Shown here one piece after another: positions 2,136 through 2,452 of a DNA stretch of 56,053 bases; the stretch's first letter is position 1, and each line of letters starts with the position of its first letter. The stretch is from a virus (Duplodnaviria > Caudoviricetes). A model generated the notes under the pieces. That model was given only the letters and a program-made list of their open reading frames with translations. It searched no databases and had not been told where the DNA came from. The stretch covers positions 1-56,053 of the IMG/VR virus record IMGVR_UViG_3300045941_000468, one strand, 5' to 3'. The position numbers and the translations under genes are program-made.

Positions 2136-2212
2136 TGGAGCCGACCGCCGGAATCGAACCGGCAACCCCCGCATTACGAATGCGGTGCTCTACCGGATTG
2201 AGCTAGGTCGGC
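2136..2212 (-). tRNA. tRNA-Thr(CGT), complete, with encoded CCA
   Basis: GCCGACC acceptor stem, D-arm TAGCTCAATCCGGTAGAGC, anticodon arm CCGCA-TTCGTAA-TGCGG, T-loop GGTTCGATTCC, 3' TCCA. Confidence 0.96.
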
Positions 2213-2216
2213 GTAT

Positions 2217-2452
2217 CTACCAACTGGGTACTACCAACTGCTACCAACTGGGGGCTGGGTTGACCGCCCAAGAAAACCAGCAACTGCTTAGCCTGCAACG
2301 ACTTCCCACGATCCAAAAAACCGTCTCAGCGGCATTACGAAGAGGGTCGACAAGCGCGGTTTCCTTAGGAAATTCACACAACCCGCAACTGCGTCATGTC
2401 ATGGCATCCCCTGTCGTGACATGGCGCTCCACTAGCCTAGCCCAGTTGGTTG
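2217..2452. other. attP: attP: arm-type repeats flanking a 10-bp core identical to the tRNA anticodon region
   Basis: CTACCAACTG at 2217, 2231 and 2241; inverted copy CAGTTGGTTG at 2443-2452; core GCATTACGAA at 2332-2341 equals tRNA 2171-2180; direct repeats GTC(A/G)TG(T/A)CATGGC at 2393 and 2413. Confidence 0.8.

Follow-up and report, generated by a model that had tools for sequence, protein, structure and literature searches.

The left end of a 56,053-bp virus record, IMGVR_UViG_3300045941_000468 (IMG/VR; linear, estimated to be 81% complete, and referred to below, at its full length, as the window), carries a tyrosine integrase gene (int), a complete tRNA-Thr(CGT) and a putative phage attachment site (attP) whose core is a bare copy of the anticodon loop of that tRNA. 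Comparison with related loci suggests that this is probably the module by which an uncultivated, temperate soil phage would integrate, through tRNA-dependent lysogeny at the tRNA-Thr(CGU) gene of its host. In Guerrero-Bustamante and Hatfull (2024, mBio, PMC10865867), this term denotes the use by a tyrosine integrase of a common core of about 8–17 bp within a tRNA gene, with no tRNA rebuilt at the junctions; the cognate phage tRNA is required for viable lysogens, and its deletion gives clear plaques.

We propose the following scheme. The lambda-type integrase would assemble on attP at three direct repeats, followed by an 84-nt spacer, the core and accessory sites to its right. Strand exchange between the overlap TTACGAA and the anticodon loop of the host gene, which has the same 7 nt, would split that gene and, because attP has no tRNA 3' half, neither junction would encode a tRNA. 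The complete phage tRNA-Thr(CGT) beside the repeats would make up for the loss. In the integrated state, the stretch upstream of the phage tRNA would consist, on its own strand, of the host promoter, the 5' half of the host gene and 122 nt of phage DNA, and therefore read-through from the host could transcribe it. The sequences themselves establish the anatomy and how far it is conserved, the tie between the integrase family and the tRNA-Thr anticodon loop, and the absence of a restoring half. Integration at the host gene, the need for the phage tRNA and the point at which its transcription starts are the parts of this scheme that we infer.

Anatomy and conservation of the proposed attachment site

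The phage tRNA, the repeats and the core follow one another closely (Table 1). The Rfam tRNA model matches at 2139–2212 with 68.3 bits, against a gathering score of 29; the 3' end of the tRNA starts four bases past the int stop codon, and the repeats CTACCAACTG begin four bases beyond its 5' end. The sequence GCATTACGAA is found both in the anticodon arm of the tRNA (2171–2180) and at 2332–2341, so that core and phage tRNA are identical over 10 bp. An earlier note on this DNA had described a full tRNA-Thr(CGT) lying outside a set of arm repeats, and a 10-bp copy of its anticodon region placed between three direct arms and an inverted one; each of these elements was recovered where it had been placed. 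The direct repeats also held up on comparison, occupying the same place in all 13 related loci that have the tRNA. The inverted arm fared less well, as, among 9 lineages, only the window and L031 keep a copy with at most 1 mismatch to the right of the core.

Table 1. Features of the left end of the window, with positions and the basis of each assignment
Feature	Position	Strand	Basis
HTH_17 excisionase-type helix-turn-helix protein	312..566	+	Pfam PF12728, E 7.4e-07, 29.8 bits (cut-off 27)
Small protein, weak ribbon-helix-helix match	589..897	+	Pfam PF12651, 18.3 bits, below cut-off of 21.6; a lead only
Tyrosine integrase with lambda-type N-terminal arm-binding domain	890..2131	+	Pfam PF00589, E 3.3e-12
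Complete tRNA-Thr(CGT) with encoded CCA, proposed replacement tRNA	2136..2212	-	ARAGORN; Rfam
Three direct repeats CTACCAACTG, proposed arm-type integrase sites (P arm)	2217..2250 (2217, 2231, 2241)	+	Exact matches; integrase binding presumed
84-nt spacer, in place of the tRNA 3' half of classical relatives	2251..2334		No tRNA half left
TTACGAA, the anticodon loop (TTCGTAA) read on the other strand; putative 7-bp overlap of attP, where crossover would occur	2335..2341	+	Conservation, contig breaks, classical relatives
Palindromic motif TTTCCTTAGGAAA, 18 nt from the core	2360..2372		Kept as TTTCCTNAG..AAA in replacement-type and classical relatives
CATGAC/GTCATG-type repeats, consensus TCATGnC....CATGAC.CGACATGAC	2393..2426		Alignment of 9 lineages
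Inverted repeat copy CAACCAACTG, 1 mismatch to CTACCAACTG, possible P' arm site	2443..2452	-	Repeat scan

The repeats stand out from the composition of the window, which has a G+C content of about 69%. Allowing at most 1 mismatch, CTACCAACTG has 5 matches where 1.02 are expected, the fifth lying at 25896, and none of 100 shuffles reaches 5. The heptamer TTACGAA occurs at just two places on both strands of the 56 kb, within the tRNA and at the core. At the scale of the window alone the second loop copy is not significant, since at least 2 matches appeared in 18 of 100 shuffles for the 10-mer (at most 1 mismatch) and in 14 of 100 for the 7-mer; it owes its weight to its position between the repeats and to its conservation in relatives.

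Related loci were drawn from viral contigs and metagenome contigs by the relatedness of their integrases, and a scan of the metagenome contigs gave 80 loci, all in attP form where readable. At an integrase identity of at least 44%, a minus-strand tRNA-Thr(cgt) is present downstream of int in 12 of 15 loci (L006, L007, L008, L012, L024, L026, L027, L030, L031, L032, L033 and L038). As for the other three, the contigs of L025 and L029 end 700 and 204 nt past int, and L028 has no tRNA. L037, with an integrase only 35% identical, also carries a tRNA-Thr(cgt). Three direct repeats come after the tRNA 5' end in 13/13 loci, their sequence being, according to lineage, xTACCAACTG, GTGATAACT or TGCCAACTG. 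An exact TTACGAA in the orientation of the tRNA lies 49–84 nt past the last repeat in all 12 loci with enough sequence (L032 ends earlier); this distance is 84 nt in the window and five other loci and 83 nt in L024. When nine non-redundant attPs were aligned (273 columns, 55% mean identity), TTACGAA was the sole invariant run of more than 3 nt. The identity of the core to the tRNA of the same locus, measured against the phage tRNA and not against a host attachment site (attB), extends over 7–10 bp in the nine lineages, the window having the full 10 bp. The flanks of the core are similar to the tRNA halves only at the level of chance (z from -1.8 to 1.6), and in every lineage the anticodon of the tRNA, CGT, matches the loop copy. 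The tRNA itself is not fixed in position: L006 and L030 have 211 nt between it and the repeats, and in L026 and L027 it lies 961–1223 nt from int.

Ten distinct homologous phage tRNAs were compared. All of their stem cells pair (210/210), and 12 of the 21 pairs have changed on both sides; none of 500 shuffles attains these values. This maintenance of pairing, together with the covariation, indicates that the phage tRNAs are working genes and not debris.

To the right of the core the conserved parts are the palindromic motif and the CATGAC-type repeats. The former may be guessed to be a site for a bending or accessory protein. The latter (alignment columns 195–235) are kept in all nine lineages, including those whose arm repeats are different, and an accessory protein or a repressor could possibly bind there. 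To the left, a second and imperfect TTACGNA is seen about 23–30 nt from the exact TTACGAA in L006, L007, L012 and L024. L028 (integrase 50% identical) has different repeats (CATCCTG) in the region 2300–2370 and, at the position of the core, GTTCAAGTA instead of TTACGAA. This sequence resembles a T-loop or the anticodon loop of tRNA-Leu(CAA), and a switch of target may have taken place within the clade.

The repeat CTACCAACTG is also the exact reverse complement of a very common bacterial tRNA D-arm, CAGTTGGTAG. This D-arm is present in soil tRNA-Thr genes, seen as loose ends of contigs, and in 0 of 10 phage tRNAs. In a lysogen the host 5' half would thus bring a fourth direct copy of CTACCAACTG to about 9 nt from the core. 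The likeness could be a coincidence, the repeats could derive from tRNA fragments, or the N-terminal domain of the integrase could read the host tRNA gene.

The integrase itself has the residues required for catalysis, with R237, R356, H381 and Y391 invariant across the 31 relatives found in the protein collection (37–100% identity). In an AlphaFold model (pLDDT 86.5), three N-terminal strands and a helix precede the core-binding and catalytic domains, and Foldseek aligned full-length lambda Int (1z1b, 1z1g and 5j0n) to this model over 401–412 columns with E of about 1e-10 (for 1z1b, 411 columns and E 8e-11). Because of the modelled N-terminal domain and the full-length alignment, it is likely a heterobivalent, arm-binding, lambda-like protein of three domains. 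No integrase of a cultured phage exceeds about 29% identity to it (tblastn), and those of Ximenita and Krueger reach at most about 27% over part of its length. One genome from each of 185,579 species contained no close relative, the only 4 matches being of partial length and 28–38% identity.

Classical relatives and the missing 3' half

In a classical attP of the anticodon-loop type, of which P22 and HP1 are examples, the tRNA segment from the crossover to the 3' end is carried by the phage and restores the host gene. Williams (2002, NAR 30:866, as cited in PMC11476347) is said to have distinguished sublocation classes of tRNA integration sites, anticodon-loop crossover among them. Sites of the classical kind, with TTCGTAA, then a tRNA-Thr 3' half to CCA, and repeats of their own, are present in L010, L034, L035, L036, L040, L041 and L129, whose integrases are 24–38% identical to that of the window when aligned end to end. 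L009 has the same start and is cut by the contig end, and L132, a low-GC locus compared by its att sequence, has the same layout. The 3' halves in the classical loci are identical to that of the window tRNA at 22–27 of 38 positions (z from 4.0 to 8.0), as against 13 of 38 in the flank of the window core (z -0.4, or -0.5 when calculated again together with the controls). On this value we reject the idea that the spacer contains a decayed tRNA half. A lenient Rfam scan detected no partial tRNA at the cores, a negative that carries no weight, as the scan also missed the evident 3' halves in L034, L036, L040 and L129. The restoring segment is therefore absent from the window, which bears out the statement of the earlier note that the core is not followed by a tRNA 3' half.

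Classical and bare-loop attPs can be superimposed. Both have the TTTCCTNAG..AAA motif, 17–35 nt from the loop on the other side. In the orientation of the window, L040 has 88 nt from the last repeat to the core, and these hold the tRNA-Thr 3' half; the window has 84 nt. By this shared motif and the similar distance, the spacer at 2251–2334 occupies exactly the place where relatives keep the restoring half. Since classical relatives have TTCGTAA and a tRNA-Thr 3' half at this same place, the integrase family would seem to target the anticodon loop of tRNA-Thr(CGU), and the clade of the window would have lost the restoring half and come to carry a whole tRNA. The integrase tree is compatible with a single switch from the classical to the replacement type. 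A clade of the classical loci L009, L010, L034, L035 and L036 together with L011 is supported at 99/99, and a clade of the window with L024, L025 and L028 at 97/96. The backbone is unresolved, L040 and L041 fall outside the 99/99 clade, and the bare-loop loci make up the remainder; the placement of L030, which has a long branch and a faulty row, was disregarded.

On the basis of this homology and of the anatomy described above, integration at tRNA-Thr(CGU) is the probable outcome. When the resulting junctions were modelled for the nine lineages, with the phage tRNA's own halves as stand-ins for those of the host, ARAGORN found a tRNA in 0/18 junctions and in 9/9 intact controls. The destruction of the host tRNA-Thr(CGT) that the earlier note had deduced is thus upheld in so far as no tRNA is rebuilt, by the models and by the comparative evidence. 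The integration event that it presupposes stays a deduction, as no junction was found. The same may be said of its wider reading of the locus as a tRNA-replacement system. The bare loop copy as core, the failure to rebuild the host tRNA and the phage tRNA as replacement all find support in the relatives, the classical attPs, the modelled junctions and published precedent, and neither a junction nor a host was found to complete the picture.

These comparisons bear on two other explanations. In the first, the crossover takes place inside the phage's own tRNA (2136–2212), which would have a long identity to the host, both junctions would keep a tRNA, and TTACGAA at 2335 would be the decayed relic of an older attP. 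The arrangement of int and tRNA, with the 3' end of the tRNA towards int, does resemble the int-side junction of a classical prophage of the L040 type. The three repeats are also 37–70 nt from the anticodon loop of the tRNA, a distance that would suit arm sites. A relic would be expected to decay, however, and TTACGAA at 2335 is invariant in nine lineages while its flanks have diverged. The spacing from repeats to core and the TTTCCTNAG motif match classical attPs around 2335 and not around the tRNA, which itself sits at differing distances from the repeats (L006 and L030) and from int (L026 and L027). There is no copy of the repeat within the 3' end of int, and assembled contigs break at 2335, as described below. 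We consider a crossover within the phage tRNA to be quite improbable.

A second possibility is that the tRNA is of the kind that phages commonly carry, and helps to meet codon demand or acts as a decoy for an anticodon nuclease, that integration occurs elsewhere or not at all (the phage being, for example, episomal), and that TTACGAA is a protein-binding motif that happens to be loop-like. This would agree with the attP form of 13/13 loci and the lack of a lysogen in the species genomes. ACG is a frequent codon in the phage, and the second TTACGNA, about 24 nt to the left in several loci, is what a repeated protein site might look like. But the occurrence, within the same integrase family, of attPs with the loop and a tRNA-Thr 3' half ties the heptamer to the tRNA, the anticodon of the tRNA is that of the loop copy in every lineage, and the catalytic residues of the integrase are invariant. 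An ordinary phage tRNA beside a fortuitous motif is an improbable account, and integration at the host anticodon loop remains the reading that we prefer.

Junction searches, soil assemblies and gene neighbourhood

The earlier note had proposed a search for attL and attR junctions in a host tRNA-Thr. No attL, attR or attB was found in viral contigs, in the contigs of four soil runs or in the species genomes, although such searches cannot prove absence. Exact scans of the viral contigs for the core with its right flank and for the left flank with the core gave 0 matches each. The pattern of a repeat, 65–95 nt, TTACGAA and a tRNA 5' half had 22 matches in these contigs, all of them tRNA arrays or due to chance, none from the clade and none with at least 2 repeats. 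That of a tRNA 3' half, TTACGAA and TTYCYYNAG had 5, comprising two classical attPs (L129 and L132) and three chance matches, with no junction of the clade. A variant tRNA seen as a contig loose end had 0 matches in the scan.

Part of the region 1700–3000 is present in 20 soil runs, and the contigs of four of these (X1, X5, X6 and X7) were placed on 1200–3600. The data are Logan contigs, which drop rare forms, so that rare junctions would be invisible in them. The first T of TTACGAA, at 2335, coincides exactly with the start or end of a contig in three of the four runs (X1, X5 and X6). Depth is lower on the int side than on the right side in every one of the four (8.8 vs 15.2; 5.0–5.5 vs 9.8; 8.8 vs 13.2; 4.1 vs 5.9). 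One X1 contig spans 1989–2364 in attP form without a difference, at a depth of 10, the right-hand contig having a depth of 15.2. X1 also has a second left branch, with a depth of 5.8, whose tRNA-Thr is not that of the window (its anticodon stem is CTCGC/GCGAG) and which meets the window again at 2335; at the joint from 2213 to 2335 a deletion and a diverged stretch are indistinguishable. At least one other left module is thus linked to the right arm at the overlap, as recombination between related phages would give, and this is not a host junction. The breaks at 2335 fit with exchange at the core.

The same assemblies might be read in another way, with the window as an assembly chimera or an integrated state in which the tRNA belongs to the host and what lies to its right is part of a second element. 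The unequal depth of the two sides in 4/4 runs and the contig breaks at 2194 and 2335 are what this would predict. Yet the X1 contig crosses 1989–2364 without a difference, 13 loci that differ in their tRNA sequences and have lineage-specific repeats show this order of elements again, and phage genes lie on both sides, among them those for a DNA polymerase fusion at 3383–6391 and for tail proteins. A chimera or prophage junction is accordingly very improbable, and we retain the view that the window shows an intact attP.

Other tRNA pieces were encountered in these searches. Contigs of X1, X5, X6 and X7 also break at 2194/2195, inside the tRNA, and have, as loose ends, several truncated tRNA-Thr-like pieces that run on into unrelated DNA; these may be att remnants that other elements left in tRNA-Thr genes of the soil community. 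In six viral contigs of 31–45% G+C (L105, L109, L112, L117, L123 and L124) a full tRNA-Thr(CGT) is followed about 110 nt away by a 5'-truncated copy, which looks like the att remnants of an unrelated low-GC element.

Several observations weigh against integration as proposed here. Every recovered locus is in attP form and no lysogen is known, as there is no close integrase relative in the species genomes. The junction searches and both exact scans were negative, and none of the contigs in the four soil runs joins the int side to host DNA. These runs are perhaps from one sampling campaign, and X1 is perhaps the source of the window. The modelled junctions borrow the halves of the phage tRNA, and the P' arm is left undefined by the poor conservation of the inverted copy. 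Further, the same 7-nt loop is present in the phage tRNA, 161 nt from the core and in direct orientation, and it must escape recombination with the core.

The window begins, in order, with a macro-domain fragment, the HTH_17 protein, the protein with the weak ribbon-helix-helix match, and the integrase. Judging from its domain, the HTH_17 protein is a candidate recombination directionality factor. To the right of attP, a single open reading frame (ORF) of 1002 residues (3383–6391) encodes a uracil-DNA glycosylase superfamily domain (residues 26–169) fused to a family A DNA polymerase, whose nearest cultured-phage matches are at most about 29% identical (tblastn). The minus strand of the window holds genes for a tail fibre and a lytic tail protein. 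ARAGORN reports an 87-nt tRNA-Pro(cgg) at 9015–9101 where there is no Rfam tRNA at the gathering score, and this call is probably a false positive. Megablast found no cultured phage near the window, and matches in a protein atlas give a weak lead to Acidobacteriota as the host. In 35 phage ORFs, ACG makes up 40% of the Thr codons (411/1034) and ACA 2%; if the codon usage of the host resembles that of the phage, loss of tRNA-Thr(CGU) would be costly to it.

Transcription of the phage tRNA and known systems

The placement of the tRNA raises the possibility that integration also determines its expression. In the window the tRNA is co-oriented with the core and begins 122 nt downstream of it, in agreement with the spacing of about 120 nt in the same orientation given by the earlier note, and this geometry is conserved. 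The tRNA has the orientation of the core in 13/13 loci, with 99–154 nt of phage DNA intervening (326 nt in L006 and L030). On the strand of the tRNA, between core and tRNA, the -10 hexamer TANNNT is absent from 6 of 9 lineages, including the window, and a total of 5 were observed where shuffles predict 18.3. This minimal test was used because a promoter scan with a threshold of 8/12 matches, which found none in 8 of 9 loci, would also miss the likely promoter of phage Gaia. A scan of 2000–2600 with the sigma-70 consensus gave 0 sites, with the caveat that the host may use another type of promoter.

These data would be expected if the phage tRNA were captured by the host tRNA promoter, a proposal that we regard as tentative and somewhat doubtful. 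The layout is not unique to this clade, and the known cases with which it may be compared have a promoter of their own, plausible in Gaia and demonstrated in Fionnbharth. L006 and L030 provide a second objection. Between the repeats and the tRNA (5290–5493 in L006), on the strand of the tRNA, they have an ORF for a 66-residue, excisionase-like helix-turn-helix protein, the stop codon of which abuts the tRNA 5' end. In a lysogen this ORF would sit behind the host tRNA promoter; it also needs a promoter itself, which speaks against transcription of the tRNA strictly in the lysogen.

A larger combination of ideas is rather unlikely as a whole. In it the replacement tRNA would have no promoter of its own and be switched on by integration, and the tRNA of the prophage would then serve as attB for the next phage, giving serial tRNA replacement and exchange of int-tRNA modules at the overlap; as a further oddity, the N-terminal domain of the integrase might read the host tRNA gene. 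The serial replacement and module exchange are suggested by the soil assemblies, where the right arm has a second left branch attached to it at 2335.

The mechanism itself is already published; what is new here is the integrase clade, the target tRNA-Thr(CGU) and the occurrence in uncultivated soil phages. PMC10865867 reports tRNA-dependent lysogeny for tRNA-Lys(TTT), tRNA-Ile2(CAT) and tRNA-Leu(CAA), with experimental proof in mycobacteriophages, and names Fionnbharth (cluster K4), LeBron and other cluster L phages, Cain (K6), BrutonGaster and OneUp (CQ2), Mollymur (DL) and Gaia (X). There, classical and replacement types are mixed within integrase families (Ximenita and Cain; Omega and Gaia). 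Its authors expect the mechanism to extend beyond actinobacteriophages, citing Lj965 of Lactobacillus johnsonii, and ask how widespread it is. Table 2 of the paper has tRNA-Thr(CGU) only for a classical phage, Hestia, with a 52-bp core, and among the titles listed for the literature on tRNA-dependent lysogeny none describes tRNA-Thr(CGU) or phages from soil metagenomes. The window is like the phages of PMC10865867 in its lambda-type tyrosine integrase, putative arm sites, modelled junctions that rebuild no tRNA and tRNA of the same anticodon, and in the presence of both attP types in one integrase family; its common core may be similarly short, to judge from the identity to the phage tRNA. It differs from them in its distant integrase, in its target and in an identity to the phage tRNA that can go down to the 7-nt loop, and it is known from sequence alone.

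With regard to expression, PMC10865867 describes the Fionnbharth tRNA as lying away from attP with a promoter of its own that has been demonstrated, whereas in the clade of the window the tRNA is beside attP in every tRNA-bearing member. Gaia (KJ567043) is closer. Its tRNA-Leu(CAA) is beside attP and co-oriented with a loop-like core, which we place, from our own reading of the sequence and not from the paper, at TTCAAAAG (L127, 9001–9008), 112 nt upstream of the tRNA at 9121, as compared with 122 nt in the window. As in the window, transcription from the host tRNA promoter would, once the phage had integrated, continue into the phage tRNA. The layouts differ in that the Gaia tRNA shares the strand of int and is separated from it by attP; in the window the tRNA is on the strand opposite to int and is placed between int and the repeats. 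Gaia also has a plausible promoter (TTGCAG, 16 nt, TAGTAT) 14 nt before the tRNA, whereas the window lacks even a TANNNT from core to tRNA.

Outside the Actinobacteria, PMC11476347 describes, from bioinformatics, a tRNA-Leu(UAG) of Sinorhizobium meliloti inactivated by a prophage resembling vB_MloP_Lo5R7ANS, a Mesorhizobium phage, with the cognate tRNA on the prophage. On these accounts this prophage and Lj965 share with the window the cognate tRNA carried by the element, but they are observed lysogens with junctions and have another tRNA and integrase, the clade of the window being known as attP forms only. The classical anticodon-loop attPs, represented by distant members of the same integrase family, also have the 7-nt loop as overlap, and differ from the window in carrying the restoring 3' half.

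These results would extend a mechanism shown at the bench only in actinobacteriophages to an entire clade of soil phages, uncultivated, comprising at least nine lineages and having an unrelated integrase. Within one integrase family, classical and replacement attPs can be compared directly, the 3' half having apparently been swapped for an unrelated spacer of the same length while the 7-nt loop alone is invariant. The family may therefore serve as a natural series in which to study the evolution of the switch and the minimum length of a common core. The combination of a full tRNA beside int with a bare copy of its anticodon loop between repeats provides a search rule for metagenomes, and Gaia, which is cultivable and has a similar geometry, would suit a direct test of promoter capture.

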